NCBI GenBank assembly: GCA_035629865.1
Contig: DASPHC010000146.1
Location: forward strand, 53,420 to 117,419
Direction: 5' to 3'
DNA: 64,000 nt
DNA from: Thermoanaerobaculia bacterium
GTDB lineage: Bacteria; Acidobacteriota; Thermoanaerobaculia; Gp7-AA8
Shown here: piece after piece, positions 1 to 48,841 of the stretch
Position numbering within the stretch: the first letter of the stretch is position 1
How the letters are laid out: each line of letters starts with the position of its first letter
Made by a program: the position numbers and the translations under genes
Notes under the pieces: generated by a model
What the model saw: only the letters and a program-made list of their open reading frames with translations
What the model was told of the DNA's origin: nothing
Databases searched by the model: none

Positions 1-2663
1 CGCTTGATGCTCGCCAGCGTAGCCTGTTCGTCGAGCAGGTAAATCAATTGCTCCTCGGGTATCCCGAGTCCACGGTAATAGGCGAGGATCGCGCTCGCGT
101 CGTCCTTTGCAAAGAGGAGATCCGGGATGTCGGGATTCGCATAACTGGAGATTCCGACAACCGCCACCCAGACCTTTCCTTCGTGTCGCCGATGGAGAGA
201 AAGCCTCCGGCTGCCGCGATGCCCTTCGGCCGACACCACGATGACTTCAAAGACGTTCTCTCCATACTCGAGCTGGACCTGGGGCTTGTATTGCCAGGCA
301 TAGCTCCCCTGATCCTGAATCAGCATCGCGGGCCCGGCTTCGACGGAACGGCGGTTCTGCTCGAGCCGTATCGTTTCCACCGGGGCGTGCGACTGGACCT
401 CGAACTTCAGGACAACACTTTCCTGCTGCAGGTGGCTACCGTTCTCATGACCGTGAAACGAGACCACTGCCGGAATCGCCGCCGTGCGAGCGTGTGTACG
501 TTCGAGTGCCGGAGGCGGCACGGCGGAGATCACCGCCGCCTGTTCGCGCTGGATGGGCAGCGTCGTCTGATGCTCGGCGGAAGGAAAATCGCTCTGGGAA
601 GCGACGATCTTGAGCGACACGCCGGAGCCGGCGACGTTGCGGCGGATGTGCGCCTTAAAGGAGAGTCTCGTCGCGGATGCTGCCGCACCGACAACGCCGA
701 CCTCGAGCTGGAGCTTGCGAGCCGGGGCGCCTGAATCGTCGAGCAGTTCGACGCCGTCGTTCTCACTGCTCAACTCCAGCCGGACTTTCTCCGCCGGCAG
801 GGAGCCCTGGTTGCGAACGTCGAGGGCGAATACGGCGGCCTGGCCTTCGGTCAGCGGCGATGCCGCGATGACGTCGGCGACGAGCTCGGGCCGGCGGGCA
901 CGGAACGGGAGAGCGATCTGCTGTTCCGGGGAGGAAAAGTCGCGTTGGGTGATGGCGACGGTGAGGGGGAGATTGGCGGGAGCGGTGTCACGTCCGAGCA
1001 CGCGCGGGATTTCGAGGCGCACGCGCTGCTCGGCTCCCTCCGAATCAGCGGGGAGGTCGCCGACCCGAATCTTCTGCGGATTCACGGCGACGCCTGTCTG
1101 GCGCGACGCGACCGAGATCCAGACGTCGCGCGCCGCGAGCGCTCCACGATTGACGGGCGTGAGAGCCAGCTCCACTGTTTCTCCATTATTCGCCACGCCG
1201 TCGCGATCGCCGCGCGATCCGGGAGAGCCTCCGTCGTATAGCCGGTGACGCACTTCCAGTGAGGGCCGATTGTTCTGCACTTCCCACGTCCGGGTCTTGC
1301 TCGTCTGCGCCACTGTCGATCCTCGGGTCTCCACGGCATGAACTGTCAGAGGAAGCTCCGCACCGGAAAATGTCACGGGCAGGCGGACGAGGGTGCGTGC
1401 CTCTTTGACGGAATGAGCGGGAATGCGAGGAACGGCGACATTCTGTTCGACGATCTCGACTCCTGCGGTGGGCGACGAGATCATCACGCCGGCGCCGACG
1501 GCGTCCCCGGGACCGCTGTTACGAATCAGCACGACTGCCTCGAGCGTCTCTCCGTTCGACGGCCGGCCGTCCGCATCGCCCTGCGCGCGCCCTCCATGGT
1601 CGCTCAGGCGAAAGTCGGCGATCTCCAGGTGCGGCGGGTTCAGTCGTTCGGTGGCCAATTTCACGATGACGGGACGGCCGCCATACCCGCGTTTTTCCGT
1701 CGTATCCACCCGGAGTGTGGGAAGCGCCGTCTCGACGTCGAGGCCGGCCGCGATGGCCACGCTCAGCTCCTTCCTGGCGCCGGGCGGCAGCTCTCCGATC
1801 TCCGTGGCGGCAGGGAACGACACTGCTACGGCCGCGGAAGAGATCTTGAGCTGGACACCGAACCCGGGTCCGCCGCCCCTATTGTGAACGGTGAAGAGCA
1901 GCCGTGCGGTCTCGCCCGCGTCGAGGCGGCCGTTCGGAAAGAACGCCAAACTGTCGTCGAACCGCGCGGTGAGCTCCAGATCGGAAGGCCGTGCTCTTTG
2001 CGTGGCCACTGCCCACAGGTGGGTCTTCAGCGGTTCGTCTTCGAGGATGTTGCGGACGAGTTGATCGAGCATTTCCTGTAAAGCGGGAATGCCCACGGCC
2101 CGGCTTCTGGTGCGACTGGACCAATAAAGCCTTTTTTTGAATTCGCTCGTGCCGACTGCCGTGATGGTGCTCAGCGCATTTCCATGTTCATCGCTTACCT
2201 CGAGGGTCCCGAACACATCCGCTCCTCGAGGCCACATCAAGTCCCGATTCATACGGATGCGTGAATCCACCCCCGCTATCAATACCAGGTCGAACCCGGA
2301 GCGCGAATCAGTGGCTCGGAGAATCTCAGTCCGCGGAAAAAGACGACGGACGATACGCGGAAGCACGCCGGATGTGGCTTCGGCGAAGTTAATGACGATG
2401 TTGTCGTACTCAGCAACGTTCGCGTAATCCAACCCTCCCCACACACCATTTTTCCAACTCACGGCGGTTCCGAAAGTCGCGCTCGTTGTTGGCTGGAACG
2501 TTGGCAGTACGAGAGCCACACGGAGACTTTTGTCGAGCGGGCGGGCAGGAAGGGTGGGCGGCAGATAGTTTTTTGGGAAGTCGATCGTGATGTGCACGAC
2601 GTTCCTGAGCTCAGGAAGCGCGTATGCCGACGGGCTGCATAGGCAGGAGAGAATCCACATCAT
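1..2663 (-). CDS. Large secreted protein with a signal peptide, about five CARDB-like repeats and a C-terminal caspase-like (peptidase C14) domain. The 3' end runs off the window. Absent from the ORF track because no stop codon lies in the window.
   Basis: I translated the minus strand by hand from ATGATG at 2663 and found it open all the way to position 1 (about 887 codons). The N-terminus MMWILSCLCSPSAYA is hydrophobic. There are repeated CARDB-like blocks such as ARLLFTVHNRGGGPGFGVQLKI, EAVVLIRNSGPGDAVGAGVMI and AVFALDVRNQGSLPAEKVRLEL. The final segment, KVWVAVVGISSYANPDIPDLLFAKDDASAILAYYRGLGIPEEQLIYLLDEQATLASIK, fits the start of a caspase/metacaspase domain. The in-frame stop at 2709-2711 delimits the upstream end. 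The + strand ORFs 48..734, 610..1248 and 1338..2081 are antisense artefacts. Confidence 0.6.
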   Translation of the reverse strand, partial: MMWILSCLCSPSAYALPELRNVVHITIDFPKNYLPPTLPARPLDKSLRVALVLPTFQPTTSATFGTAVSWKNGVWGGLDYANVAEYDNIVINFAEATSGVLPRIVRRLFPRTEILRATDSRSGFDLVLIAGVDSRIRMNRDLMWPRGADVFGTLEVSDEHGNALSTITAVGTSEFKKRLYWSSRTRSRAVGIPALQEMLDQLVRNILEDEPLKTHLWAVATQRARPSDLELTARFDDSLAFFPNGRLDAGETARLLFTVHNRGGGPGFGVQLKISSAAVAVSFPAATEIGELPPGARKELSVAIAAGLDVETALPTLRVDTTEKRGYGGRPVIVKLATERLNPPHLEIADFRLSDHGGRAQGDADGRPSNGETLEAVVLIRNSGPGDAVGAGVMISSPTAGVEIVEQNVAVPRIPAHSVKEARTLVRLPVTFSGAELPLTVHAVETRGSTVAQTSKTRTWEVQNNRPSLEVRHRLYDGGSPGSRGDRDGVANNGETVELALTPVNRGALAARDVWISVASRQTGVAVNPQKIRVGDLPADSEGAEQRVRLEIPRVLGRDTAPANLPLTVAITQRDFSSPEQQIALPFRARRPELVADVIAASPLTEGQAAVFALDVRNQGSLPAEKVRLELSSENDGVELLDDSGAPARKLQLEVGVVGAAASATRLSFKAHIRRNVAGSGVSLKIVASQSDFPSAEHQTTLPIQREQAAVISAVPPPALERTHARTAAIPAVVSFHGHENGSHLQQESVVLKFEVQSHAPVETIRLEQNRRSVEAGPAMLIQDQGSYAWQYKPQVQLEYGENVFEVIVVSAEGHRGSRRLSLHRRHEGKVWVAVVGISSYANPDIPDLLFAKDDASAILAYYRGLGIPEEQLIYLLDEQATLASIK

Positions 2664-2908
2664 CCGGATCGTACGAGCGACTGCCGCGGTTCGTGATGTT
2701 GACACGTCCTATCCTCCGTCCCGGAACACTGAAGCCAAGGCTCGCGCCGGATGCTTGACGCGGTCACTTCCTCTTTGAGGGGTGCTGGAACGACGTGGAA
2801 TCCCTACCGCAGGTAGACACGGCTGGTGGTAGGAAGTGGCGGAAACGATGTCGGCGCTCCGTGAGGCTAAACTTCGTCCCGTTGTTTCACGCTCCGCGAC
2901 TGGCCCGC

Positions 2909-3196
2909 ATGGCGGCGTTTCTCCATTCGATCGGCATTCCCATGGAAGCAGGGACGGTGGACGTCCCGACGATCTTCCCGGGCAGCCTGATCGCGCGAGG
3001 CGCTCTGGTGATCGACGAGGCGAAGCTGGTGGCGCCGGGGGATGCGCTGCATGCGGCGGCGCACATCGCGCTCGCTCCGCCCGAGCGGCGCGGGTCGGAC
3101 TTTGCCTTTCTCGACGGGGCGGATGACGGCGAGGAGCTGACGACGATCGCCTGGTGCTGGGCGGCATCGCTCGAGATCGGGCTCTTGCCCGCGTAA
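2909..3196 (+). CDS. Small Ala-rich hypothetical protein (doubtful)
   Basis: A 96-codon ORF in the 600-bp gap between the TIR-STAND gene and the caspase-domain gene. No recognisable motif. Confidence 0.25.
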   Translation: MAAFLHSIGIPMEAGTVDVPTIFPGSLIARGALVIDEAKLVAPGDALHAAAHIALAPPERRGSDFAFLDGADDGEELTTIAWCWAASLEIGLLPA

Positions 3197-3261
3197 AGTC
3201 TCCAGAACTTCGTCTGTGTTCATGCTGTCGTTACCCTCTTCAGTTGTGAAAGCAAGTAACG

Positions 3262-5553
3262 CTACGGGAGTTGCGCGAGGATGCTGTCGTAGTGGCGGGC
3301 GAGCTCCGGATGACCGCGGTCGTTCAGAATCTGCAAGAGCTCGCGGACCGTCTTCGCGAGTGGCAGGTAGCCGGCGTCGAGCGTCCCGGTCAGAGCCTGG
3401 TTGAACTGCGTCGCGGCGTCAAACGGGTCGCCGGTTCGTGCGGCCTGCAGCGCCGCCTGGAGGCGCAGCCGGTGCGTCTGCTCGTGGTCGGGACCGAGCT
3501 CGCGCTCCGCGATCGCGAGCGCGCGTGCGATGTGTGCGGCGGCCTCGTCGAAGCGGCCGAGCTCCGTCAGCACGGCGCATGCGTTGGCGAGCGTGCGAAT
3601 GAGCTTCGCGTTGTCCGGACCATAATGTTTCTCCTGGATTGCGAGCGCGGCCTCGATCTCATTCGCGGCGGACGCGAAATCTCCCATCCGCTCGAACGCC
3701 ATCGCGATGTTGTTCTTCGTCACACCGAGGTATTTCTCCACGTCCAGCTTCCGGAAGAGCGCCTCCGCTTCACGCAGCAGCGGGAGCCCTTCCGCGGGGC
3801 GGCCCGCTTCCGCGTAGGCGTTGCCGAGGTTGCTGAGGTCCAGAGCGACGACGGCGTGGACGTCGCCGTACGTGCGGCGATCGACGTCGATCTTCTCCTG
3901 AAAGACCGCGATGGCATCCTCGATGTCGCCAGCCTGGCCGCGCAGGATGGCGACGTTCGCCCGCAGGGTCACGAGCGCCGGATCGCTCTCTCCCCGGAAG
4001 CGAACCATCCACCGCGCGGCGGCGTCGAACGCGGCGGCCGCAGCATCGAGGTCGCCGCGATGGCGCAGGTACATCGCGGCGCGATTCAGCAGAGGTCCGG
4101 CGTCGTCGTTGACGGCTCCCTCCTCTTCGGCGAGGCGGCACGCGGCGCGGCCGTGCGGCAGGATCCGCGCGGCCGTATGCCACTCGCGGGAATCCTCAGG
4201 ACTCATGGGGAACGCGAGGTTCACGGCGGCACATGCTTTCCGTGTCGCGTGCGCCCGCTCGTCCGCCGGCATCTGGTCGCGAATGACGAGCTGCACGAGC
4301 TTGTGAATGGCGACCGCGCGTTCGTCCGCGCGGATCAGCGAGTACGCGCGTGCCGCGGCAATGGCTCTGTTCACCGCCAGCTTGCCTTCGCTGTCGTTCA
4401 GCAGCGACCGCGGGATGTCGTCGGGCGCGACGAACGCGCAGAGCATCAACGGCTGTGCCACGTCGCGGATGTTGTCGATCGACAGCTTCCACGTCGCGGC
4501 AATCGTACTTTTGGTGTCGTGCCGCACGGTGCGGAAGGATTCGAGATAGTCGGCAATCGAGGACGCCGTTCGCTCGACGTACGCGGCCGCGTGTTCGAGC
4601 GCGAGAGGAAGATCGCCGAGGTCGTGCGCGAGCTCGTCCGCAGCCTCAGCATTGGTTGCGCCGCTGCGCGCGAGAAACAACTTCACCGCGTCGCTGCGCG
4701 GAAGCACGCCGACGGGAAGGGGTGTGCCCGCGCCGGGCTTCGGCGGATTGGGAGTGGTCACGATGACGTGTCCCGGCGCGCCGTCGGGAAGATACGGCAT
4801 GACGTCCGCCGGATCGTCAGCATCATCGAAGATGAGGAGCCAGCCGGGCGTGGCGGCGAGATGGTTCTTCACCGCCTCGACGATGGCGTTCTGGTCCGCC
4901 CAGTCTCGTTCCTCGAGCGCGCGCTCATCTGCGAGCATCGCGTAATCGGAGGCGAGGGTCGACGGGTCGTCCGCCCGGATCCACCAGATGGTCGAGTACT
5001 CGTGCGCGTGGCGGTGCGCGTATTCGATCGCGATCGAGGACTTGCCGGCGCCGTCCAGCCCGACAAGCACCGGCACTCGCTTGTGCGCGAACGCTTCGCC
5101 GAGTTGTACGAGCACGTCCTCGCGTCCGGTGAAATGGGTGTTGCGCGGCTGCAGGTTCGAGACCCGCCACACTTCGGCGAAGGCGCGCGGCAGATGGTCG
5201 TCGACGTCGGGCCACATCACGACCTGGTGCCGCGCGAAAGGACGCGTACGCCAGTCACAGGCGTCGTCGAGGATGATTGGGATCACGCGAGTCCGCTCGC
5301 CCGCCATCGCGGCCTCGGTTTCGAGCGTGCAGAAATCCGAGTCGAGGAAATCCTTGCTGACCAGCAGCAGCGCGAAATCCGATGCCCGGATCTGCAGGAG
5401 GATCTCAGGATGGTACTGCTCGCCGGCCACGAGCTCCCGGTCGTGCCACATCGAGAGCCTGCCGTTGATTTCGAACGGGCGCAGACGTTCGAGCAGTTCA
5501 TCCTTGCGCTGTTCGTCTTCACGTGCGTACGACACGAAGACGTTGAGGGGCAT
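3262..5553 (-). CDS. TIR-NB-ARC(STAND NTPase)-TPR protein
   Basis: The N-terminal TIR domain begins MPLNVFVSYAREDE and carries an SDFCTLE motif compatible with the catalytic Glu of NADase-type TIR domains. The P-loop is GLDGAGKS, with a hhhhDD Walker-B at LLIFDDADD. The C-terminal 300 aa are TPR-like repeats of the LGNAYAEAGRPAEGLPLLREAEALF type. Confidence 0.85.
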   Translation of the reverse strand: MPLNVFVSYAREDEQRKDELLERLRPFEINGRLSMWHDRELVAGEQYHPEILLQIRASDFALLLVSKDFLDSDFCTLETEAAMAGERTRVIPIILDDACDWRTRPFARHQVVMWPDVDDHLPRAFAEVWRVSNLQPRNTHFTGREDVLVQLGEAFAHKRVPVLVGLDGAGKSSIAIEYAHRHAHEYSTIWWIRADDPSTLASDYAMLADERALEERDWADQNAIVEAVKNHLAATPGWLLIFDDADDPADVMPYLPDGAPGHVIVTTPNPPKPGAGTPLPVGVLPRSDAVKLFLARSGATNAEAADELAHDLGDLPLALEHAAAYVERTASSIADYLESFRTVRHDTKSTIAATWKLSIDNIRDVAQPLMLCAFVAPDDIPRSLLNDSEGKLAVNRAIAAARAYSLIRADERAVAIHKLVQLVIRDQMPADERAHATRKACAAVNLAFPMSPEDSREWHTAARILPHGRAACRLAEEEGAVNDDAGPLLNRAAMYLRHRGDLDAAAAAFDAAARWMVRFRGESDPALVTLRANVAILRGQAGDIEDAIAVFQEKIDVDRRTYGDVHAVVALDLSNLGNAYAEAGRPAEGLPLLREAEALFRKLDVEKYLGVTKNNIAMAFERMGDFASAANEIEAALAIQEKHYGPDNAKLIRTLANACAVLTELGRFDEAAAHIARALAIAERELGPDHEQTHRLRLQAALQAARTGDPFDAATQFNQALTGTLDAGYLPLAKTVRELLQILNDRGHPELARHYDSILAQLP

Positions 5554-5562
5554 GCCGCGATT

Positions 5563-6032
5563 CTACACGGTCATCACGAGTCACCTTCACCCTTGGATGA
5601 CGACCGCCTTCAGGCGCACACGAACCGCCGTCACCTTGATAACGACCGCCATCAGGCTCATCACGAATCACCTTCATCCTTGATAACGACCGCCTTCCGG
5701 CTCGCAACGACGTCCTTCCGGTTCGCAACGACCTCCGTCGGGTTCAATACGACTGTCCTTCCGGCGCGCAACGACGTCCTTCAGGTTCAATACGACTGTC
5801 CTTCCGGTTCGCAACGACCTCTATCAGGTTCAATACGACTGTCCTTCCGGTTCGCAACGACCTCTATCAGATTCAATACGACTGTCCTTCCGGTTCGCAA
5901 CGACCTCTATCAGGTTCAATACGACTGTCCTTCATCGTCGATAGCCACTTCCTTCGCCGTCGATGGTCATCTCCATCGTCCTTGATAGCTGCCTCTATCG
6001 TCCTTGATAGCTGCCTCTATCAACCGTTGCCC
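5563..6032. repeat. Array of about 20 head-to-tail degenerate 21-22-bp repeats, such as gcaacgacctctatcaggttc and aatacgactgtccttccggttc, in the TIR-gene upstream region
   Basis: Direct reading shows the units abut without unique spacers. The 21-22-bp period is not a multiple of 3. The last five or six copies are near-identical and earlier copies are more diverged. Confidence 0.8.
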
Positions 6033-6105
6033 GTCCCGCGATTCTCCTGCCCGTGGCCTGGAGCCGGACTTCTTGGACTAGAATTGAGACTCGGAGGAGG
6101 ACGCC

Positions 6106-6867
6106 ATGCCTCACGTCACCTCACATCCCCCTGGTTCCTTCTGCTGGGTCGAGCTCGGGACGACGGACGTCAACGCGGCCCGGACGTTCTATACGCAGCT
6201 CTTCGGCTGGACGGTCAACGAGATTCCGATGGGAGAGTTCGGGGTCTATACGATCTTCCAGAAGGATGGCCGCGATTGCGCGGCCGGCTATGAGCTGATG
6301 TCTAACCAGCCCGGTGTCCCGCCGAACTGGCTGTCGTACGTCGCGGTCGCCGATACCGATGCGGCGGTCGGGAAGGCGAAGGGCCTCGGCGCGGCGGTGG
6401 TCTCCGAGCCGATGGACGTCTTCGACAGCGGCCGGATGGCGGTGCTGGCCGATCCGCAGGGAGCGGTGTTTGCGGTCTGGCAGGCGAAGGAGCACATCGG
6501 GGTGCAGATCCGCGATGAGCCCGACACGCTCTGCTGGAACGAGCTGCAGGTGCGCGATCTCGAGGCGGCGAAGAAGTTCTACCCCGCGCTTTTCCCCTGG
6601 CGGATGAAGGAATCGCCGGAGTACACGGAGTGGCATCTCGGCGAGAACGCGGTCGGCGGCATGATCGTCTCGCAGTGGCCACCCGAGGTCCCGTCAGTCT
6701 GGCTGCCGTACTTTGCGGTGACGGATTGCGAGGGGACGGTGGCAAAGTCGGGCTCGCTCGGCGGCTCGACGATCGTGCCGCCGATGGAGATTGCGAATGT
6801 GGGGAGGATGGCCGTGCTGTCGGATCCGCAGGGGGCGGTGTTTGCGGTGATCCGGCTGGCGTTGTAA
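6106..6867 (+). CDS. VOC-family protein with two tandem glyoxalase/bleomycin-resistance-like domains
   Basis: The two halves are internally duplicated (GRMAVLADPQGAVFAVWQ and GRMAVLSDPQGAVFAVIR), typical of tandem VOC domains. An AGGAGGA ribosome-binding site precedes the ATG. Confidence 0.8.
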   Translation: MPHVTSHPPGSFCWVELGTTDVNAARTFYTQLFGWTVNEIPMGEFGVYTIFQKDGRDCAAGYELMSNQPGVPPNWLSYVAVADTDAAVGKAKGLGAAVVSEPMDVFDSGRMAVLADPQGAVFAVWQAKEHIGVQIRDEPDTLCWNELQVRDLEAAKKFYPALFPWRMKESPEYTEWHLGENAVGGMIVSQWPPEVPSVWLPYFAVTDCEGTVAKSGSLGGSTIVPPMEIANVGRMAVLSDPQGAVFAVIRLAL

Positions 6868-6972
6868 TGGATGGGTTCGATGGGACGGATGGGACGTATG
6901 GGACCTATGGGACCCGCCCCTCCCATAGGTCCTATAGGTCCCATTTGTCCCATCCGTCCCATCGGGTTTCCA
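6868..6972. repeat. Palindromic hairpin element built from 9-bp NATGGGACN units (GGGAC/GTCCC family)
   Basis: The left arm is gatgggacggatgggacgtatgggacctatgggaccc. The right arm, ccataggtcctataggtcccatttgtcccatccgtcccatcggg, is its imperfect reverse complement. It sits immediately after the VOC gene stop. Confidence 0.7.
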
Positions 6973-7094
6973 TTTCTTGCACTCAGTGGAAATTCAACCC
7001 CACCCCACCCTGTTTCCACTGTCGCTTCCGGGAAGATTTGCCGCAGTGTGGATCTCCGTCAGGTAGCTAGTTTCGCGAAAGGAGATCTACCCAC

Positions 7095-7301
7095 ATGAGT
7101 CGTCAGCACGGAACCGTCAAATGGTTCAACGATGCCAAGGGCTTCGGCTTCATCACGACCGAGGGCGGTGAGGACGTGTTCGTCCACTTCAGCGCCATCT
7201 CGGCCAATGGCTTCCGTTCCCTCCAGGAAGGGGCCCACGTCGAGTTCGAAGTGACCCAGGGCCCGAAGGGCCTGCAGGCCCAGAACGTCACCCTCAGCTA
7301 A
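7095..7301 (+). CDS. cspA: Cold-shock protein (CspA family)
   Basis: [20 protein letters not shown]...VFVHFSAI carries the RNP1 and RNP2 motifs. An AAAGGAG ribosome-binding site precedes the start. Confidence 0.92.
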
Positions 7302-7326
7302 TCCACAACCTACGCTGTAACAGAAA

Positions 7327-7354
7327 GGGCGCGCCGCGAGGCGCGCCCTTTTTG
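7327..7354 (+). terminator. Rho-independent terminator after cspA
   Basis: The stem gggcgcgcc-gcga-ggcgcgccc is followed by ttttt. Confidence 0.7.
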
Positions 7355-8077: not shown

Positions 8078-9691
8078 CTACTTGCGCCGAATCTCGTCGT
8101 CATTCCACGGACGGGAGATAACGCAGGAGTTGATGCCGCCGACGCCCATGCTCAGTTTTCCACTGTAGCCGGCCTTCAATTCGCGTCCGCCGCGGTCGAC
8201 GAAGTTGGCGCTGTGGATCTTCACGTCGGCGTGCAATTCTCCCTCCGTTAGAGGCATCGGAAAGAGTTTGCCCCTGGCCATGCCGAGGTGCTGGGCGGTC
8301 AGCTCCCAACCGCCACCGACCGACATGCCATGGCCGAAGGTGCCTTTCCGGGCGGTGAAGATGACGTCGGGATGGAGCAGCTCGAGCGAGTTCTCGATCT
8401 CGGTGGCGTCGCCCGGCGTGGCGGTGGCGTGCATGTCCCAGGTGGTCACCTCGTGGGCCTGCACGTGTTCGAGCGCGGCTTTCATGGCCAGCTGCGGGCC
8501 CCCTTTCGAGGGGGTGATGATGTGGTGGGCGTCGGAGGAGGTGCCGATGCCGACGAGCTCCATCCCCACGGGCTCGAAGCCTTTGGCCATCAGCTCGTCG
8601 GCGTCGCCGACGATCCAGATGCACGCGCCGCCGGCGATGTGCGTCCCTTTGAGGCCGGTGAGCGGGCGGGAGACGTCGGCGTCGGCGGAGAGGACGTTGG
8701 CGTTGTAGAAGGCGGAGATGACCATCTCGTGCGGCGGCGGGTCGGTCATGCCGATGACCACGGCCGTCGCTTCGCCGCGATGGATGGCGTCCATGGCCAG
8801 TTTCGCCGCGATGCCGAACGAGGCGCACGCCGCCACCGGGCACCAGGCCGGCCCGACGATCTTCGCGAGCATGGAGATCTGTGCGGCGGGGATGTTGTTG
8901 ATGTTCCAGAGGAGGTTCGGCGAGACGGCCGCCCACGGTTCCTCGGGGCATCCGTATTTCTTGTTGAGGGCGCGGATGCGGTTCAGTTTCTGCCGGATCG
9001 TGCTGAGCTTCGCCGATCCGGAGGCGGGAGGGACGGGCTCGGCATGGACGTCGCGTGCCTCGGCGAGGTATTCGGTCAGTGCGTCGCTCTTTGCCGCCCA
9101 CCAGCCTTCCCAGGCATGTTTCGCGTCGATCCACGCCTCGGTGCCGGGCTCGAGCTCGGCCGGGTTGCGCGGGGCCCCGGCGTCGCTCTCGCCTTCGAGA
9201 TGACGGCGCAGGGGAGTGCAACGCTCGGGCTTGGCCCAGAACTCGTTCCAGCGTCGCAGCGCACGGTCATAGATCAGCGCCTGTTCCTGGGTGACGGTGA
9301 TGTCGCCGAGGCCGGTGCCGACGTAAATGTGGGCTTTCACGCCGAGGGACTGGAGGTACTCCTCGATGCCGGGGTTCTGGCCGAGCGACTGGATGAAGGC
9401 GCCGATGGCGTACTGGACCATCGGGCCCATCTTGTCCTTGAGCTGGGCGAACTTGGCCGGCGGGAAGCGGTCGTCGAACCAGATGCGGTAGGAGTTGAAG
9501 TCGAACTCGGGGTTACCGACCAGGAAGTTCGACTGTCCGTAGCCGGTGAAGGGGGAAAGCCAGGTGCCGGAGTCCTCGAGGTTCTTCTCGAACGCGTTGA
9601 CGTTGGGCGACTTAGGCGCGACGACGCCCCACCCGAAAATACCGACTCTCCTCCGCTCCGCCATGGGCGGTGCATTGTACCGAAATTGCAT
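8078..9691 (-). CDS. Beta-ketoacyl-ACP synthase family protein (KAS I/II type, long form)
   Basis: Active-site Cys in VAACASFG, and His residues in HATATPGD and KGTFGHGMSVGG. About 120 extra N-terminal residues relative to FabF. Confidence 0.75.
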   Translation of the reverse strand: MQFRYNAPPMAERRRVGIFGWGVVAPKSPNVNAFEKNLEDSGTWLSPFTGYGQSNFLVGNPEFDFNSYRIWFDDRFPPAKFAQLKDKMGPMVQYAIGAFIQSLGQNPGIEEYLQSLGVKAHIYVGTGLGDITVTQEQALIYDRALRRWNEFWAKPERCTPLRRHLEGESDAGAPRNPAELEPGTEAWIDAKHAWEGWWAAKSDALTEYLAEARDVHAEPVPPASGSAKLSTIRQKLNRIRALNKKYGCPEEPWAAVSPNLLWNINNIPAAQISMLAKIVGPAWCPVAACASFGIAAKLAMDAIHRGEATAVVIGMTDPPPHEMVISAFYNANVLSADADVSRPLTGLKGTHIAGGACIWIVGDADELMAKGFEPVGMELVGIGTSSDAHHIITPSKGGPQLAMKAALEHVQAHEVTTWDMHATATPGDATEIENSLELLHPDVIFTARKGTFGHGMSVGGGWELTAQHLGMARGKLFPMPLTEGELHADVKIHSANFVDRGGRELKAGYSGKLSMGVGGINSCVISRPWNDDEIRRK

Positions 9692-9762
9692 GAAGGCCAG
9701 GCAGTACCGATTTCGGGCGCTGTCTTCTTGATTCCCGCGCTCCAGGAGAGAGATTTGTTCGT

Positions 9763-10054
9763 GAAGAGATCGATCGTTGTCCCGTCACTGATTCTGCTGG
9801 TCGTCGTCCTCGCGCTACCGGCATGCCGGGACCGCGAGGCCACGGCCGGAGGGGAGGCGACGGAGACGATCGCACCCGCTTCGCCGCAGCCGCAGCCGAC
9901 CGGAACGGATGCCATGACCCAGACGGTGGACGTGGAGGCCGGACGCTCGGAGGCGGAGGGGGGCGGCCCGAGCAACCCGAACGCGCCGCTCGACACGGCT
10001 ACGGATACTGCTGCCACGACCGCCACCACGCCGCCCACGACGACGACGCGCTGA
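9763..10054 (+). CDS. Small lipoprotein with a Thr/Ala-rich tail
   Basis: GTG start after GGAGAG. Signal peptide with lipobox LPAC. It lies in the 3' tail of the spurious ORF 8288..10054. Confidence 0.4.
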
Positions 10055-10055
10055 G

Positions 10056-10823
10056 ATGCCGGGTGCTGCCGGCGCCCTCTACCCTCTGTTGATCGAGCGC
10101 GAGCTCGACGCGATCCCGGCCGCGGCCCGCTCGTTCGCCGAGTCGCAGTCGGAGGAGGAGCTGTGGGTGGCCGTGGCGCGCTTCGCCGTGCTGGCGTACG
10201 CACCGTCGCAGCACGCGAAGCGGGCGGTGATGGCGGTTTGGGCCGCGCACGCGGTACGGGATTTCGCCGGTGACCGATGGGTCGATTGGATCGTCGAGTG
10301 CGCGCGCTATTCGGCGGAGAGCCGTCCGCCGTGGAGCGAGCCGCCGATTCTGGACGATCTGGCGGTTGATGAATCGCGGCTGACAGAGATCCGGGACGGC
10401 GATGCGCTGCTGATGCTCGATACGGCAAGGGCGCTGGAGCCGCTGCTGGGGGAGAAGGGGAGGGCGGCACTGCTGCGCATGCCGCTGGAGGAGTTGGGGG
10501 TGGGTGGCGAAGAGGTCAACGGGACGCTGGAGTCGCTGGTGGACCAGGCGATCGCGTCGCAAGGCGCGGTAGATGATGTGCGTGCGGTGTTCGTGGCGAT
10601 CGCGAAGCGTGAGCTCCATCCGTCCCATGAGTCCCATCAGTCCCATTCGTCCCATGGGACCTATGGGACTCTTTTGCCTTACCACCTGGCCCGAGACTAC
10701 GCCCAGACCCTGATCGCTCACGCCTACGGCCGCCGGCTGGACTACCGCACCGATGAATTTCTCGCCGCCGTCCACTACAACCTCGAACACGGCGACAATT
10801 ACGCGGAATGGAGCTTCGCCTGA
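10056..10823 (+). CDS. Hypothetical protein
   Basis: A 255-aa ORF that starts 1 nt after the preceding stop. It contains an in-frame insertion of GTCCCAT 9-mers. Confidence 0.4.
   Translation: MPGAAGALYPLLIERELDAIPAAARSFAESQSEEELWVAVARFAVLAYAPSQHAKRAVMAVWAAHAVRDFAGDRWVDWIVECARYSAESRPPWSEPPILDDLAVDESRLTEIRDGDALLMLDTARALEPLLGEKGRAALLRMPLEELGVGGEEVNGTLESLVDQAIASQGAVDDVRAVFVAIAKRELHPSHESHQSHSSHGTYGTLLPYHLARDYAQTLIAHAYGRRLDYRTDEFLAAVHYNLEHGDNYAEWSFA
10617..10668. repeat. GGGAC/GTCCC 9-mer repeat copy lying in-frame inside a CDS (encodes HPSHESHQSHSSHGTYGT)
   Basis: The stretch catgagtcccatcagtcccattcgtcccatgggacctatggga is the same unit family as at 6868, 27733 and 63961. Confidence 0.5.
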
Positions 10824-22690: not shown

Positions 22691-22889
22691 TTGCTGCCGT
22701 AGGCAGCAAAAGACCTGTAGGCCCGGCCTTCAGGCCGGGTACGACAATCGCCCGCCAGGCGAGTCCGCGGAGCGGGCGACAGAAAAGACCTTCTCTCGTC
22801 TGTCGCCCGCTACGCGGGCTCGAGGATCCGTTCACGGCTTACCCGGCCTGAAGGCCGGGTCTACAGATCTTTAGCTGCCTATGGCAGCA
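22691..22889. repeat. Family-2 nested palindromic element (roughly 200 bp), copy 1
   Basis: Outer arms are ctgccgtaggcagcaaaagacctgtaggcccggccttcaggccggg and its complement. The inner hairpin is gagtccgcggagcgggcgacag...ctgtcgcccgctacgcgggctc. It lies between convergent genes. Confidence 0.75.
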
Positions 22890-25856: not shown

Positions 25857-27314
25857 CTACTTGTTGCGCGCGACGCGGATGGTCTTTCCCTCGATCGTGG
25901 CGGTGAGTCCGTGCTGCTTCACGATCTGGTCGAAGGCCTGATCCCACGGCATGCCTACGACGTTCATCGTCACCTTCGCATCGATTCCCGGCTCGACCGT
26001 GATGTCGAAGCCGGTGATCTGTCCGAACGTATGCATCACGTCGCGCAGATCCGCGTTCTTGAGGTTGATCGAGATCGGCGCGCCGTTGTACGTCGAGGAC
26101 TTCTCCTGCTTTGCGTCGTGCTCCTGCTTGTAATCGTGCACGGTGCGGTGGAGGACTTCGCCGTTGGCGGTAGCGACGAACGTGACGCTGCCGCTCTCAT
26201 GAGTGCCACGCGCGTCGATCCGGAAGTCGGTCGTCTGCCCTCCCGCCTCGGTGCCAAACCGGACGACAGCCGGCTCATTCGGCGCGGTCTTCACTTCCGG
26301 CTGGGCCAGGACCCTGCCCGTGGCCTTGTCGGTGACGGTGAAACGGAAGACCACCTGGTCTCCGTCGCGGTCGACGCGCGTCTGCAGGTCATAGCCGCCG
26401 GAGGTCTTGTTGCCGGCGATTGCCAGGGTCGAGACCATGATCACGATTGCCGTCGTCATCAGCGTGACGCGATGCGACCATGCTCTTCGTTTGATGCTTT
26501 CGTAACTCATCAGATGCTCCAGTCTTTCTTTGATTCGCGAACTGGCCATGCACGACACACCTGCGGTTCGCGGCGCGAGCGCGGCGTGACATAGTTTCGT
26601 GAGGGCGGAGACGTACGATCCGGTCCCGTGCATGGCCTCGGCGACGGTCTCGTCGCACGCTTCCTCGCGCGCGCCGGTGAGGTCGTGCGAGGCGAGCCAG
26701 ACCAGCGGATGGAACCAGAGGATCGACGTGGCCAGCGCCTGCAGCAGCGCGGCGAGGTTGTCGTGACGCGCGACGTGCGCGCATTCGTGCAGGATCAGCG
26801 AGCGCAGCTCATCGTCGTCCAGGTCGTCCGCACCGTTCGGCGGGAGGACGATCATGGGCCGGATGACGCGAATCACCGCCGGCGCTTCGCAGATGGGGGA
26901 GCGGACGATGTCGATTGCCGTACGGATTCCCAGTGCGAGCCGTGCCGCCTGCACCACCTCGCGCTCGCGCGGCGACGCCGGTGCGGCATCGCGCAACGCC
27001 GCGGAGACGGTGCGGGTGCGCAGCAGGAGCCAGCGCGCGAAGAGGAGCAGCGCGATGACAGCCCAGAGAATGGGCAGCCACTCGATCGCCGAGGTCGTCT
27101 CCGCAACCGCGCGCGTGGCGCCGCCGCCGAGAATGCGCAGCGGGCTCGGGACCGTCTCCGCGGGAATCAGGCGGAAGGCGTCGGTGGGGATGGCGAACTT
27201 CACCAGCCCCGCGAGGAGGATCGCGTAGCGCGTGCGGGCGGTGAAGGGAAGGAAGCGAGCCGCGGCGACGGCTGCGGCCAGAAGGATGGTCGAGACGATC
27301 AGGTGTCCGGTCAC
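25857..27314 (-). CDS. BlaR1/MecR1-family M56 metallopeptidase signal transducer with a C-terminal secretin/TonB N-terminal (STN)-like domain instead of a penicillin-binding sensor
   Basis: N-terminal transmembrane helices. HEXXH in HECAHVARHD. The C-terminal ISINLKNADLRDVMHTFGQITGFDI...TIRVARN is an STN-type domain. Confidence 0.8.
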   Translation of the reverse strand: MTGHLIVSTILLAAAVAAARFLPFTARTRYAILLAGLVKFAIPTDAFRLIPAETVPSPLRILGGGATRAVAETTSAIEWLPILWAVIALLLFARWLLLRTRTVSAALRDAAPASPREREVVQAARLALGIRTAIDIVRSPICEAPAVIRVIRPMIVLPPNGADDLDDDELRSLILHECAHVARHDNLAALLQALATSILWFHPLVWLASHDLTGAREEACDETVAEAMHGTGSYVSALTKLCHAALAPRTAGVSCMASSRIKERLEHLMSYESIKRRAWSHRVTLMTTAIVIMVSTLAIAGNKTSGGYDLQTRVDRDGDQVVFRFTVTDKATGRVLAQPEVKTAPNEPAVVRFGTEAGGQTTDFRIDARGTHESGSVTFVATANGEVLHRTVHDYKQEHDAKQEKSSTYNGAPISINLKNADLRDVMHTFGQITGFDITVEPGIDAKVTMNVVGMPWDQAFDQIVKQHGLTATIEGKTIRVARNK

Positions 27315-36253: not shown

Positions 36254-36462
36254 CTGCTGCCGTAGGCAGCAGGAGATCTGTAGCCCCGGCCTTCAGGCCG
36301 GGGACAGCGGAGACCCACGAAGTGAGCCCGCGTAGCGGGCGACAGAGAAGACCGTCCGCGCGCGTTTCTCGTCTGTCGCCCGCTACGCGGGCTCAAAGAT
36401 CTTCCACGCTTTACCCGGCCTAAAGGCCGGGCCTACAGATCTTTTGCTGCCTACGGCAGCAG
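36254..36462. repeat. Family-2 nested palindromic element, copy 2
   Basis: Same outer and inner arms as copy 1. It lies between convergent genes. Confidence 0.75.
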
Positions 36463-37205: not shown

Positions 37206-39557
37206 TTACTCCACCTCGTACGTCACGCTGTCCGAGCGTCCGATGTCGTCGACCACCACCACCCGGTGCGTGCCGCGGGCGGGGCGGACGAAGGCGCGGC
37301 GGGTGGGGGGGAGGGAGGCGATGAGGGTGCCGTCGACGTACCAGTAGAGGCGGTTCACCTCGGCGGGGACCTGGGCCTGGAGGAGGATCTCCTGGTAGTC
37401 GATCGGCGCGTCTCCACGGATGCGGTACGGCGTGGTGGCGTCGGGGGAGACGATGCGGGGCGCTTCGTCGGCCGCAACTTCGCTGCAGGCGGCGCTGAGC
37501 GGCGGCATCCCTTCCACGGCCTGCCCCTGCGCGTGCCAGTAGGCGACCAGCTCGGCGGGGTAGACCACCGAGATCTCCGGCTCGTGCGGCCGTGTCGCGA
37601 CGCACTCGCCGGCGAGACGCTCGCGGGTGGTGCGGTCGACGAGGATCCGGCGGTGGTAGGTGCAGCGGCGGAGCTGGGTGCGCTCGGGGATGTAGGGGAT
37701 GGCGATCGTCTTCGCGCAGTCGGGGCCGGGGAGCTCGTGGCTCAGCGCGCAGACGTCGACGCGCTCGATGTCCGCGTACTTCGTGTCGGGACGCGCGGCG
37801 CGGCCTTCGATCGTCCGGAAAAGGTCGAAGAGCAGCGGGGCGGCGTGCTCGGAGCCGGAGATCCCTTTCTGGCCGCGGCCGTCGAAGTTTCCGACCCAGA
37901 CTCCGATCGTGTAGCGCTTCGAGAAGCCGACGCTCCAGGCGTCGCGGTGACCGTACGACGTCCCCGTCTTCCACGCCACGGTCGGCGCTTCTCTCGTGAG
38001 ATCCCATGTCTGCGGGAGGTCGGGGCGTTTCACTTCGCACAGGATCTCGGTGATCATCTGCGACGCCTCGGCGGAGAAGATCCGCTCCCCCTCCGGGGCC
38101 GGTCCGCGGAACATTTGCGCAGGCCGGTGCACGCCTCCCTCGGCGAGGGTGCTGTAGAAGTTGGTCAGGTCGAGCAGCGTGACTTCGCCCGCGCCGAGGA
38201 TCAGCGAGAGGCCGTAGGAACCGGGACGCCGGTCGAGCGTGGAGAGGCCGCCTTTGCGCAGGACGCCGAGAAAGTCGTCGAGACCGACCCGCGCCAGCAG
38301 CCGGACCGCGCTGGCGTTGAGGGAGAGCACCAGAGACTCGCGAACCGTCAGGCGGCCGCGATAGGTGCCGTCGTAGTTCTCGGCGACGTAGCCGGAAAAG
38401 TCGGTGGGGATGTCGAGGAGGTACGAGTCGGGCAGCAGGTGCCCTTCGTCGAACGCCTTCGCGTAGAGGAACGGTTTGAGGGTCGAGCCGGGAGAGCGGC
38501 GGGCGAAGGCGCCGTTGACCTGGCCGTCGAAGCGGCGGTCGAAGAAGTCGGCGGAGCCGACGAGGGCGCGGACGGTGCGGCTCTCGTTCTCGATCACGAC
38601 CACCGCGGCGTTCTCGATGCCGAACGTCCGGAGGGAGCCGATTCGCGCCGCGACCTGCCGTTCGGCGATCTTCTGGAGTCCCTGGTCGAGGGTCGTGAAG
38701 AGACGCGGCGCGCCGCCGCCGCGGGCGACGGCGAGGTCGGTGAAGTGCGGCGCCGTAAACGGCGTGCGCTGCAAGCGGGTGGGGATCGGCTGCAGCAGCG
38801 CTTTCTCGATCTCGGCCGGGGGAAAAGCGCCGCGGCTGCCGAGCTGGCGCAGCACTTCGTCGCGCGCGGCACGGGCCTGTTTCGGATCGCGCAGCGGGTC
38901 GTAGCGATTCGGCGAGCGGGGGAGCGTGGTCAGGAGGGCGATCTCGCCGAGGGAAAGCTGGGAGGGCTTCTTCCCGAAGTAGAAGTACGAGGCCGCGCCG
39001 ATCCCTTCGATGTTCCGGCCGTAGGGAGCGATGTTGATGTAGATCTCGAGCAGCTCGCGCTTCGAGTAGCGCCGCGACAACTGCAGCGCGCGGAACGCCT
39101 CGATCCCTTTGGAGCGGAGGCTGCGCCGCTTCGGCTCGGCCATCCGCGCGATCTGCATCGGGATGGTGGACGCGCCCGAGACGACGCCGCGCGCGCGCAG
39201 GTTCGTCCACGACGCGCGCACGACTGCCAGCGGGTTGACGCCCGGATGCCGGTAGTACCAGCGATCCTCGGAGGCGACGAGCGCCGCGATCAGTTCCGGC
39301 GGCACCTCGTCGAGCGTCACCGGAATCCGGTACTTTTCGTCGCGCGGCAGCACGATGCGAAGCTCCCGCCCTTCACGGTCATAGATCACGGTGGCGGGCG
39401 GAGGGCGGAGCGCGTGGATGGGCGGCGGAAAGACAACGTCTGCGATGAAGGTAGAAAGCAGAAGGCAGAAGGCAGAAGTGAGAAGGATCGCGCAGCGCTT
39501 TGTGCGAGCGCTGCTTCCTTCTGCCTTCTGCCTTCTGACTTCTGCCTTGATTCTCAT
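37206..39557 (-). CDS. pbpC: Penicillin-binding protein 1C (transglycosylase-transpeptidase)
   Basis: Transglycosylase motif EDRWYYRHPGVN. Transpeptidase motifs STLKP, SLN and KTGTS. The ATG overlaps the upstream stop (ATGA). The track's 1180-aa ORF is an artefactual 5' extension. Confidence 0.9.
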   Translation of the reverse strand: MRIKAEVRRQKAEGSSARTKRCAILLTSAFCLLLSTFIADVVFPPPIHALRPPPATVIYDREGRELRIVLPRDEKYRIPVTLDEVPPELIAALVASEDRWYYRHPGVNPLAVVRASWTNLRARGVVSGASTIPMQIARMAEPKRRSLRSKGIEAFRALQLSRRYSKRELLEIYINIAPYGRNIEGIGAASYFYFGKKPSQLSLGEIALLTTLPRSPNRYDPLRDPKQARAARDEVLRQLGSRGAFPPAEIEKALLQPIPTRLQRTPFTAPHFTDLAVARGGGAPRLFTTLDQGLQKIAERQVAARIGSLRTFGIENAAVVVIENESRTVRALVGSADFFDRRFDGQVNGAFARRSPGSTLKPFLYAKAFDEGHLLPDSYLLDIPTDFSGYVAENYDGTYRGRLTVRESLVLSLNASAVRLLARVGLDDFLGVLRKGGLSTLDRRPGSYGLSLILGAGEVTLLDLTNFYSTLAEGGVHRPAQMFRGPAPEGERIFSAEASQMITEILCEVKRPDLPQTWDLTREAPTVAWKTGTSYGHRDAWSVGFSKRYTIGVWVGNFDGRGQKGISGSEHAAPLLFDLFRTIEGRAARPDTKYADIERVDVCALSHELPGPDCAKTIAIPYIPERTQLRRCTYHRRILVDRTTRERLAGECVATRPHEPEISVVYPAELVAYWHAQGQAVEGMPPLSAACSEVAADEAPRIVSPDATTPYRIRGDAPIDYQEILLQAQVPAEVNRLYWYVDGTLIASLPPTRRAFVRPARGTHRVVVVDDIGRSDSVTYEVE

Positions 39558-44965: not shown

Positions 44966-45146
44966 CGAAGTCACTCCCGATGCATGGATGCGGATGGCGG
45001 AGGAGGGGAGGGGCGAATGAGCGGCTTTGTTCTGCCCACCATTCCACCGCCCCTCGCGGGCGTGAGGATGTCCGTGTTGAGGAAAAGCAAAGGAAGGATT
45101 GCCGCGAAATTGTGGCGGCCGGCGCGGCGTACACTCTTGCCACACC

Positions 45147-45335
45147 ATGTCCGACGAGATCTACTCCCTCGTTGCCGCCCTCTCAGTCCTCGTCTCCGCG
45201 GTCGCGCTCTGGTCGGCGATCCGCCGCCGCCAACTGATGCGCCGCATTCTGCGATCGCTGAATAAAGAACAGCTCCGCAGCGTGGGGCTGGAGGCGCCGG
45301 AGGACGTTCGTGCGGAGGACTTGAAGAAGGAGTAA
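45147..45335 (+). CDS. Small single-transmembrane membrane protein (doubtful)
   Basis: MSDEIYSLVAALSVLVSAVALWSAIRRR. Divergent from the A2M operon. Confidence 0.3.
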   Translation: MSDEIYSLVAALSVLVSAVALWSAIRRRQLMRRILRSLNKEQLRSVGLEAPEDVRAEDLKKE

Positions 45336-45628
45336 TGCGGGTTCACCCGGTACGCGGAGGCTGGCGCGCCTCAGGCGCGCCGCCGCGGACCGCCGACGTC
45401 ACCGTCGGCCGGTCCGCCCGCGTCCTCGCGGGCACGCTCTTGCGCAAGACTCCCCTACTGCCCAGTTCCGCGGCGTCCCGCCGCCCTCGCCCGGCGGCGA
45501 GACGCCGCCCGTGCCCACGAGGACGTGGGCGGACCGGCCGACGGTGACGTCGGCGGTCCGGCGCTCCGCGTGATGCAAGCGTTGGTTCTTTGGGTGCGTT
45601 CTGCTCAGGTCTACAGACCGGCGCTCCG

Positions 45629-48600: not shown

Positions 48601-48841
48601 CCGGCACCAACTGCCCCGCCCCGTCGACCAGCGCCAACGCCAGCGTGCTTTGAACGTTGAGCGCCCGCGGCAGCGGAACGCCGGAACGTACGATCTCGGC
48701 AGTGCGCGCGATGCCTGCGCTTTCCCGCACGGTCAGGAGGAGCGAGTTGGGACGCGGCGGCGGCCACGCCGCGATCACCGGCCACGCTGCGAGCAGCGAC
48801 GCGGAGAGAAGAAGAACAGCGATACGGGATCGCGGGCGCAT
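45629..48841 (-). CDS. Large secreted protein with an FN3 domain and a C-terminal HLIELRTA repeat module
   Basis: Signal peptide. FN3-like TSVTVNWNAVAGATSYEVYRR...YRVRAVN. The C-terminal tail is shared with the gene at 60655. Confidence 0.7.
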   Translation of the reverse strand: MRPRSRIAVLLLSASLLAAWPVIAAWPPPRPNSLLLTVRESAGIARTAEIVRSGVPLPRALNVQSTLALALVDGAGQLVPAEFRILARWHAGLTVTTAPIQWLLVTFPATVAANGSATYRVVFDGSSGSNPAPATPLTVTQDGNEFTIDTGAARFVVGGGSGALFDEIRLANNTRLVSGSTITAQVDGTNHAHPTTRRAVLESSGPLSAVVVVEGSYAMPAVGGGGLGSRRRYVFSAGSPVAIVRHSVAWEGDRCGAGNLACGGSPNAVRVQQVRDALSLDVAYPAAATAVGAFATTTSGTVNAGQTAAVRQLLRQDREDPLAAIVNLAASPTVNAVKADGGMLAVSSAAGAVAVALNQMHRYEPQALRILADGRLAVDLVDTAAAGGSAWLGARQGLFATLATGVFASAPSRATLDRQVWAPLNEPLHAWPQAEWFAASEAVEEFPVGTPAAEFAEYDDEAIDVAATTLEEIDNRGLAGLMTFGLYPRNWANPLYSDEIDCDDAVTPSETWDDPYWCATWTDYHNAVMTIPRFAMRNGRTEWLDELATPGALRSLHTQIFQCGPDDDNFRCGQAPAGYGGYRADFNSSHAYFDNLMLYYWLTGDYTVVETLQRGASSMRNYFCTRRPASACLPTDAPEDDYANMTGRVFTQWQWVFRFAGLAGSDATFLEDYAANIARQYTLNYADVLQNGVRYGFLIDGTLRQEIDGPGTYSTDQLWMASLYDQNLLYRLQVDTNDAPLDGQPGSPPLVPSQIIAAWARTLDQFGSTVAAGGNGTAAGTWPNALFFTFTGNRVGGTLTSVTPNQGGGDPNLYDTGKAVMTATIARAADSTGEAGLAALELDLAQFAWNAALADPSPLSKQEAELLIRLPSAIARLSLDGAIATPTGVTATATTATSVTVNWNAVAGATSYEVYRRAAGGGYLLAGSPAAPPFVNAVTSGASYLYRVRAVNGSGTSVDSDPDLATAVIFTDDPLAAAVTRVRATHITQLRTAVNAVRDLAGQPAATFTDPALSAAIRVRRIHLIELRTALDAARSALGLPALVYTDPTITAGTTVVRAAHVTGVRAGVR

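Follow-up and report, generated by a model that had tools for sequence, protein, structure and literature searches.

We carried out a computational analysis of a 64-kb stretch of DNA (hereafter the window; contig DASPHC010000146.1, positions 53,420 to 117,419, GC content 67% [67.0%]) from an uncultured Thermoanaerobaculia bacterium, in which three features lie side by side near one end. The first is a gene for a 763-amino-acid protein that combines a TIR domain, an NB-ARC-like STAND NTPase and tetratricopeptide repeats (TPRs), identified as an open reading frame (ORF) and by profile searches (3262..5553, minus strand, ATG at 5553). The second is a gene on the same strand for a predicted exported C14 caspase-like protease of approximately 1105 amino acids with Ig-like repeats of the CARDB/DUF11 kind, of which the 5' 2.7 kb lie in the window (1..2705, minus strand, GTG start). 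The third is a non-coding tandem array of approximately 20 units of 21–22 bp, found upstream of the TIR gene (5571..6021). A sequence-only reading of this DNA had proposed that the TIR-STAND and caspase-like proteins form a conflict system. We found that the linkage of the two genes is conserved in neither direction, and we consider it likely that the TIR-STAND gene, the caspase gene and the array are three independent features, juxtaposed in this genome only.

We scanned 21 proteins of the window (three near the locus, eight from ORFs at 7.4–20.2 kb and ten from ORFs at 20.4–53.2 kb), and this set is meant wherever we refer below to the window proteins scanned. The population to which the window belongs is represented in a soil sample (JGI sample 3300018432, run SRR6958552). 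Specifically, an exact-protein look-up with the TIR-STAND protein retrieved a 10.5-kb Logan contig of this run (L001), which is identical in DNA to the window throughout their overlap and breaks inside the array. Exact-protein look-ups with the VOC, KS-like, DUF1579 and CSD proteins of the window returned either short Logan contigs of the same run, again breaking in the array, or nothing.

A TIR-STAND-TPR protein with a catalytic-type TIR domain

The TIR domain occupies residues ~5–111 of the 763-amino-acid protein (nt 5221–5541), the NTPase and winged helix residues ~135–470 (nt 4144–5151) and the TPRs residues ~500–730 (nt 3364–4056), all on the minus strand. In Pfam, TIR_2 (PF13676) matched residues 5–111 with 55.9 bits (cut-off 28) and TPR_12 matched four stretches with 93 bits, while AAA_22, AAA_16, nSTAND1 and the STAND winged-helix family DUF7779 were detected below their cut-offs between the TIR domain and the TPRs. 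A ThsB-type TIR model of PADLOC was matched at 3e-21, and beyond it PADLOC-DB 2.0 yielded just one weak match, to PDC-S66. Several motifs can be read directly in the translation, i.e., Walker A (GLDGAGKS), Walker B (LLIFDDADD), VIVTT and a GLPL-like DLPLAL, and the intact P-loop and TPRs that the sequence-only reading had described are thus both present. Its description of a catalytic-type TIR motif was borne out as well: the domain scored above the Pfam cut-off, and the glutamate of its FCTLE motif aligned with the WCxxE glutamate of solved TIR structures (WCWDE in Cat1, WCLDE in AtTIR, WCLNE in SNC1 and WCLME in L6). The TIR domain is accordingly predicted to be of the enzymatic type, with NADase activity.

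The placement of the NTPase is indirect. Pfam NB-ARC (PF00931) gave no match at E<=0.01 in the window protein; the same family is carried by many of its homologues, those at 31–46% identity, and together with the motifs these homologues point to membership of the NB-ARC/AP-ATPase clade. The NCBIfam model NF040586 ('FxSxx-COOH system TPR protein') matched residues 135–723 with 369.4 bits (cut-off 300). FxSxx-COOH systems comprise a precursor and peptide-processing genes, including a metallopeptidase (PMC7159879). Neither precursor nor peptide-processing genes were seen among the window proteins scanned, although no search was aimed at small precursor ORFs. Because these other components were not seen, we take the model's name to refer to a family of proteins and not to a system encoded here.

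The TIR-STAND family is large, with more than 1000 proteins at E<=1e-10 among the candidates scored, and it is spread over Acidobacteriota, Chloroflexota, myxobacteria, archaea and other groups. One orthologue (P0073) is 90% identical to the window protein and has the same start. The window protein carries no export signal.

A caspase-like protease with a predicted signal peptide

The minus-strand frame of the caspase gene is open from position 2708 to base 1, the edge of the window, and we recovered the complete gene from the identical contig L001. Its likely start is the GTG at 2705, with a Shine-Dalgarno sequence (GGAGGA, 2711–2716) six bases ahead. The caspase domain begins near nt 270 and runs past the window edge, such that approximately the first 60 domain residues are inside the window. 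In the full protein, Peptidase_C14 matched residues 811–1059 with 51.3 bits (cut-off 21.4), with YFAGHG and DSCFSG motifs. The His-Cys dyad, which the sequence-only reading had left to the full-length protein, is intact: His890 and Cys948 are invariant across the 19 family members aligned. The best NCBIfam match of the domain was 'caspase, EACC1-associated', a conflict-system type, with 82 bits and hence below the cut-off of 140.

The protein also carries approximately 800 amino acids of Ig-like repeats. CARDB (PF07705) scored 20.3–21.4 bits in the window protein (cut-off 22.7) and DUF11 was likewise sub-threshold, while PF07705 and PF01345 are on record for most of the homologues. Translation from GTG 2705 yields the signal peptide VSTSRTAAVARTIRMMWILSCLCSPSAYA|LPELRN, ending in AYA|LPE, and the homologues have clear signal peptides with an 'A|EP-LRN' junction that the window protein matches. 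Because its signal peptide resembles those of its homologues, we predict that the caspase is exported by way of a Sec signal peptide conserved in the family. The earlier description of a secreted, repeat-containing protein with a caspase domain at its end thus held, with the qualification that CARDB itself, the repeat named there, remained below threshold.

Members of this family are approximately 1100 amino acids long; about 70 of them share 40–60% identity, and the named ones come almost entirely from Thermoanaerobaculia metagenome-assembled genomes (MAGs). GC content at third codon positions (GC3) is 0.72 in the caspase gene and 0.83 in the TIR gene, compared with 0.82–0.92 in the clear genes between 6 and 20 kb, and these values are compatible with both genes being later arrivals. 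At some orthologue loci (L002, L005 and L007) two caspase paralogues lie in tandem, and in one subclade (L005, L006, L007 and L010) a conserved CHAT-TPR protein and a 394-amino-acid protein adjoin the caspase; the stretch of L005 noted for these features is 8525–10465.

The TIR-STAND and caspase genes are not linked in related genomes

By means of a family alignment we collected 79 loci that encode homologues of the caspase, each taken with as much as 10 kb of flanking DNA; ten of the 79 contain full-length orthologues from Thermoanaerobaculia or other Acidobacteriota. None of the 79 loci was matched in tblastn searches with the TIR-STAND protein, whether it was used whole or as separate TIR, NTPase and TPR parts, and no window gene other than the caspase gene was common to the caspase-orthologue loci. 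The opposite direction gave the same picture, with no Peptidase_C14 neighbour in any of three TIR-STAND orthologue contexts. Specifically, the 90% orthologue P0073 (locus L081, an Acidobacteriota MAG) sits between a DinB gene and an ABC-transporter gene, a 59% orthologue (L082) adjoins another TIR protein and a patatin, and a 58% orthologue (L084) has an fn3 protein on one side and a cytochrome c-like gene on the other; no synteny was found between the window and the neighbours of these orthologues. Because linkage is not conserved in related genomes, an outcome that the sequence-only reading had itself named as speaking against its proposal, the reading of the two genes as a conflict system fails.

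Moreover, the closest relatives of the caspase have other, conserved partners. At L101, L102 and L002 (60%, 57% and 55% identity, respectively), the caspase is the last gene of a tight cluster in which it is preceded by genes for a 431-amino-acid TPR protein (TPR-431) and a 325-amino-acid protein with a hydrophobic N-terminus (unk-325; cluster positions 1330–6903 of L101, 5726–11264 of L102 and 1–4783 of L002). Neither TPR-431 nor unk-325 matched a Pfam or NCBIfam family above cut-off, and neither is present anywhere in the 64-kb window. The cluster of TPR-431, unk-325 and exported caspase may be a real extracytoplasmic module.

A two-gene conflict or cell-death system would nonetheless have had some appeal, either in the manner of type IV Thoeris or in the manner of an apoptosome, with a STAND platform activating the caspase. 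The genes are adjacent on the same strand, the catalytic residues are intact in both proteins, the best NCBIfam match of the caspase domain is to a conflict-associated type (albeit below cut-off), and pairs of TIR and caspase proteins are a validated defence system. In type IV Thoeris, a short TIR protein is encoded alongside a caspase-like protease in a tight two-gene operon, and the product of the TIR protein, N7-cADPR, activates the caspase (10.1101/2024.10.24.620036; PMC13243611). The window resembles this arrangement in that a TIR-domain gene adjoins one that encodes a caspase-like protease whose His/Cys dyad is intact, but the likeness does not extend further. The TIR domain is fused to a STAND-TPR protein of 763 amino acids; the genes have no operon structure, being separated by 556 bp (2706–3261) that hold a relic gene on the opposite strand; the caspase is predicted to be exported and carries its long series of Ig-like repeats; and the pairing is not conserved (0/79 and 0/3). 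In particular, the conserved Sec signal peptide argues against a cytoplasmic effector activated by N7-cADPR, as it would send the caspase out of the compartment of the TIR product and of any STAND platform.

The surroundings of the 59% orthologue (L082, 5950–12307) are defence-island-like: the gene is divergent from one for a 684-amino-acid protein with a weak TIR_2/Thoeris type III ThcB4-like match, and a patatin gene is near.

A cassette-like TIR gene beside a truncated relic

The gap between the two genes contains the truncated relic of an uncharacterised family of approximately 165 amino acids, detected by tblastn (2879..3196, plus strand, GC3 0.80). The relic points towards the TIR gene (convergent) and away from the caspase gene (divergent). 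The relic retains the N-terminal ~105 residues (tblastn covers residues 1–108 of 169), and tblastn found no remnant of the last ~60 residues, i.e., of the C-terminus. Its family, for which we found 354 homologues and no match in Pfam or NCBIfam, has a conserved GDALHEAAHIA motif (HExxH-like), and the relic reads HAAAH in place of HEAAH. Some family members are fused to larger proteins, one of them with an Asp/Arg hydroxylase domain.

The window and L081, the locus of the 90% orthologue, were 93.4% identical in nucleotide sequence (blastn), and solely over window positions 5565..3264, so that the homology runs from 12 bp upstream of the ATG to the stop codon. We regard the TIR gene as cassette-like because its homology stops at the gene ends, because L081 lacks the array and because the relic in the gap is truncated. 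The gene probably behaves as a cassette that was inserted or recombined between the array and the neighbouring gene, truncating the latter.

Upstream of the TIR gene we read by eye a -10-like hexamer, TAGAAT (5560..5565, minus strand). Its position 6 nt before the ATG suggests a leaderless TIR-STAND mRNA. The only upstream sequence shared with L081 is G-TAGAAT-(C/T)GCGGC-ATG, and a scan of 2500–7100 for the sigma-70 consensus found no full promoter. In the window, the first array units would supply the upstream half of such a promoter for the TIR gene.

Structure of the tandem array

The TIR gene and a gene for a two-domain VOC/glyoxalase-fold protein (KbpA-like, below cut-off; 6106..6867, plus strand) diverge from a 552-bp intergenic region, most of which is taken up by the array. 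Tandem Repeats Finder (TRF) reported periods of 21, 22, 43, 44 and 86 bp with scores of up to 384, of which 43–44 bp is a higher-order period. Three blocks can be distinguished: a proximal block (5571–5706) with a 44-bp period at 80%, a central block (5707–5933) with 5.3 copies of 43 bp at 92%, and a distal block (5934–6021) of 22-bp units with CTATC-N6-GATAG palindromes, the only inverted repeat that a scan of the array region detected. Cutting at TCGT yielded 16 units of 20–24 bp, followed by approximately 4–5 degenerate distal units. A core, GAAGG-N2-3-(G/T)TCGT on the TIR-sense strand, is retained in most units, and the core pattern was observed 4 times against an expectation of 0.11. No ORF with coding GC3 covers the array, and the earlier description of roughly 20 non-coding copies in the promoter region of the TIR gene therefore stands.

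Several other identities of the array were considered and rejected. A CRISPR array was ruled out by the units being contiguous, without unique spacers. A structured RNA was rejected on folding z-scores of -1.9 and +0.5 for the two strands and on an Rfam search of 5554–6105 that gave no match at E<=1. LexA-type motifs read GTTC-N7-GTTC; the GTTC spacing in the array is 17–18 nt, and this reading was rejected too. In blastn searches the array had no similar sequence among 72,556 plasmids and 50,697 phages. The window proteins scanned include no product of a rep, par, LytTR, integrase or transposase gene, and no isolated copies of the motif were found elsewhere in the window or in related loci (~300 kb).

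Relatives of the array

The locus of the 90% orthologue has no tandem repeat upstream of its TIR gene, which means that the array is neither conserved along with the TIR gene nor tied to it. A scan of metagenomes with a pattern of two consecutive core units returned two loci. At one of them (L085) the match was a 2-copy repeat in AT-rich, unrelated DNA, which we rejected as chance. The other (L086, JGI Ga0190275_10000784; homologous array in L086/L097) is a true homologue of the window array. In viral contigs, a scan for the motif found it 10 times, always singly and never as an array; with an 18-base pattern, we judged these matches consistent with chance.

The array of L086 is 85% identical to window positions 5571–5761 over 191 bp, and a block of six units with the odd lengths 21, 23, 21, 22, 20 and 23/24 occurs in the same order in both arrays; segments of the central and the distal type are present in L086 as well. 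This second array sits after a mannosyl-3-phosphoglycerate-phosphatase-like gene, in a housekeeping setting with ispG, lspA and trehalose genes. The L086 contig has the same GC content as the window (67.0%) and ends 170 bp past the array, in a dispersed element resembling repetitive extragenic palindromes (REP-like); the Logan contig ends inside the array. The phosphatase protein of L086 is also encoded on a Logan contig of SRR6958552, the run that holds the window DNA, and because it is shared in this way we place both arrays in the same sample, either within a single genome or split between two closely related ones.

Arrays of similar period were also found in two Thermoanaerobaculia MAGs. 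One is an intergenic 21-bp array of ~12 copies after uvrB (L013, 16824–17102), and the other an intergenic 21-bp array of ~7 copies between a methyltransferase gene and a zinc alcohol dehydrogenase (Zn-ADH) gene (L010, 5575–5726); they are unrelated in sequence to each other and to the window array. With the same TRF settings throughout, we counted four arrays of the 21-bp type in 304 kb of Acidobacteriota DNA and none with a period of 20–23 bp in 1018 kb from other phyla, a small sample that was not designed for this comparison.

Other features of the window and related loci

Directly after the stop codon of the VOC gene lies a long hairpin (6875–6967), formed by approximately 4 tandem copies of the 9-bp repeat ATGGGACCT and approximately 4.7 copies of its inverse. 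With its T-rich tail it is probably a terminator; it also scored against several Rfam miRNA models, in all cases below gathering threshold. The same architecture of a tandem repeat followed by its inverse, in unrelated sequences, was seen at L101 (7062–7157), L102 (2304–2385 and 14778–14850) and L082 (2205–2300). The dispersed element noted above, which resembles REP sequences or miniature inverted-repeat transposable elements (MITEs), is ~90–100 bp long and comprises three small hairpins (GCTGCCGTAGGCAGC, CCCGGCCTTCAGGCCGGG and GCCCGCGTAGCGGGC). It occurs in the window as two head-to-head pairs (22692–22889 and 36255–36461) and in L086 right after the second array (8512–8598), with 75–92% identity.

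A gene for a cold-shock protein (CSD, 68 amino acids) lies at 7095–7301 on the plus strand, and 7039–7354 on the same strand matched the Rfam cspA thermoregulator below gathering threshold (44 bits against 78, E 7e-9). Further into the window, a bacterial alpha-2-macroglobulin gene (1864 amino acids) adjoins a gene for a 1070-amino-acid protein with no Pfam match at E<=1e-5 (39557–48841, minus strand), and a BlaR1-type M56 protein with an STN domain is encoded at 25860–27314.

Discussion

The locus is a TIR-STAND-TPR sensor of known class next to an unrelated exported caspase and a minisatellite. In bacterial STAND/NLR-like sensors, TPR sensors bind phage proteins, which leads to oligomerisation and effector activation (PMC13581612). 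By analogy, the TIR-STAND protein would be a stand-alone, NLR/Avs-like cytoplasmic sensor with an immune function. Its TPR region would bind a trigger, probably a phage protein, whereupon the NB-ARC-like NTPase would oligomerise and the clustered TIR domains would cleave NAD+, aborting infection either by depletion or by signal production. The protein shares with Avs/AVAST and TIR-NLR type sensors the succession of an N-terminal effector (here TIR), a P-loop STAND NTPase with a winged helix and a TPR sensor (PMC13581612), and like them it is encoded by a single gene in variable genomic contexts, one of which places an orthologue beside a TIR protein and a patatin. It differs from them in its NB-ARC/AP-ATPase-like NTPase and its membership of NF040586, as well as in its host, an uncultured Thermoanaerobaculia bacterium.

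The caspase, judged catalytically competent by its sequence, would act outside the cytoplasm; its partners in its closest relatives are the TPR-431/unk-325 pair and not a TIR-STAND protein. The array is best read as one of a family of minisatellites whose expansion is due to slippage or unequal exchange, and we infer that it lacks a dedicated function. Its period is approximately two helical turns, and it is one of a small family of repeats for which the sample contains at least two loci; it would have grown by slippage or unequal recombination, the central 43-bp units being the youngest. That it supplies the sequence ahead of the TIR gene's -10 element would be chance, and any regulatory effect would be incidental or at most local.

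Mycobacterial interspersed repetitive units (MIRU) are intergenic bacterial minisatellites, or variable-number tandem repeats. The window array is like such repeats in being non-coding and intergenic, in combining degenerate, old units with near-identical, young ones, in occurring at more than one locus per genome or sample and in breaking short-read assemblies. It is unlike them in its shorter unit (21–22 bp) and in the collinear block of six units conserved between loci.

Some observations weigh against this picture of three independent features. The TIR-STAND protein lies outside the PADLOC models for Avs, as none of the Avs/AVAST profiles of PADLOC-DB 2.0 matched it. The presence of further 21-bp arrays in related genomes may point to a process or function specific to this lineage, and the 85% conservation of the proximal block, together with the retained GAAGG..GTCGT core, could reflect selection for protein binding instead of the neutral behaviour of a minisatellite. 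The view downstream of the second array stops at the end of the L086 contig. Finally, neighbouring genes may be functionally linked in particular strains, so that a lack of conservation does not strictly exclude such a link.

Four alternatives can be set against the picture of independent features. The first is that the array is a functional, multi-site protein-binding platform (iteron-, centromere- or operator-like, or a direct-repeat regulator target) that controls the divergent TIR-STAND and VOC promoters. Plasmid R6K has seven 22-bp iterons and sopC of the F plasmid twelve 43-bp repeats; LytTR regulators recognise 9-bp repeats with a spacing of 12–13 bp. The window array resembles the R6K iterons and sopC in its many head-to-tail repeats of ~21–22 bp and its 43-bp higher-order period. 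Such a period would set binding sites on one face of the helix, the core recurs in most units, and the proximal block is found again at a second locus, conserved and with its units in identical order. Furthermore, the array abuts the -10-like element of the TIR gene at one end, and at the other its palindromes lie ~60–130 bp upstream of a -10-like TAGAAT of the VOC gene (read by eye). However, plasmid iterons and centromeres differ from the window array, which is chromosomal, has no rep or par gene nearby and shows no similarity to plasmids or phages; nor is there a LytTR gene among the window proteins scanned. Isolated sites are missing from the ~300 kb of related DNA, the second array adjoins an unrelated gene, and the 90% TIR orthologue has the same -10 region without any array. 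Near-identical central units are, in addition, typical of recent neutral expansion. We therefore consider a binding platform unlikely.

A broader version, in which 21–22-bp arrays are lineage-specific functional intergenic elements of Thermoanaerobaculia, be it as binding platforms or as hot spots that capture cassettes, appears to us still less probable. Were it true, the window array and its collinear relative would both belong to one functional family, and the level at which a potentially toxic TIR-STAND sensor is expressed would be set by the array and tuned by its copy number.

It is very improbable, third, that arrays of this family mark places, either hot spots for recombination or insertion or a mobile element's end, where genes like that for the TIR-STAND protein are captured as cassettes. 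The homology of the TIR gene to its orthologue does start in or next to the last array unit and end at the stop codon, the neighbouring gene is truncated, the ancestral upstream partners of the caspase are missing from the window, and the second array adjoins a dispersed REP-like element at which assemblies break. Against this, the window offers a single case, the window proteins scanned include no transposase or integrase, the far side of the second array is hidden by the contig end and the arrays of L010 and L013 flank housekeeping genes. The fourth alternative, a system made up of the TIR-STAND and caspase genes, can be dismissed as hardly credible, given their unconserved linkage, the relic gene between them, the predicted export of the caspase, its other conserved partners and the cassette-like limits of the TIR gene.

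Taken as three independent features, the locus adds, with its TIR-STAND protein, one member from an uncultured soil lineage of Acidobacteriota to a class of NLR-like sensors that is very large and already recognised; its caspase belongs to a separate family of exported proteases. The negative outcome is useful in itself, as it cautions against taking a TIR-STAND gene and a caspase gene for a system because they are adjacent, unless conservation has been tested. Two modest leads emerge for the biology of these bacteria: the family of 21–22-bp arrays, together with the building of intergenic repeats in these genomes, and the cluster of TPR-431, unk-325 and exported caspase.

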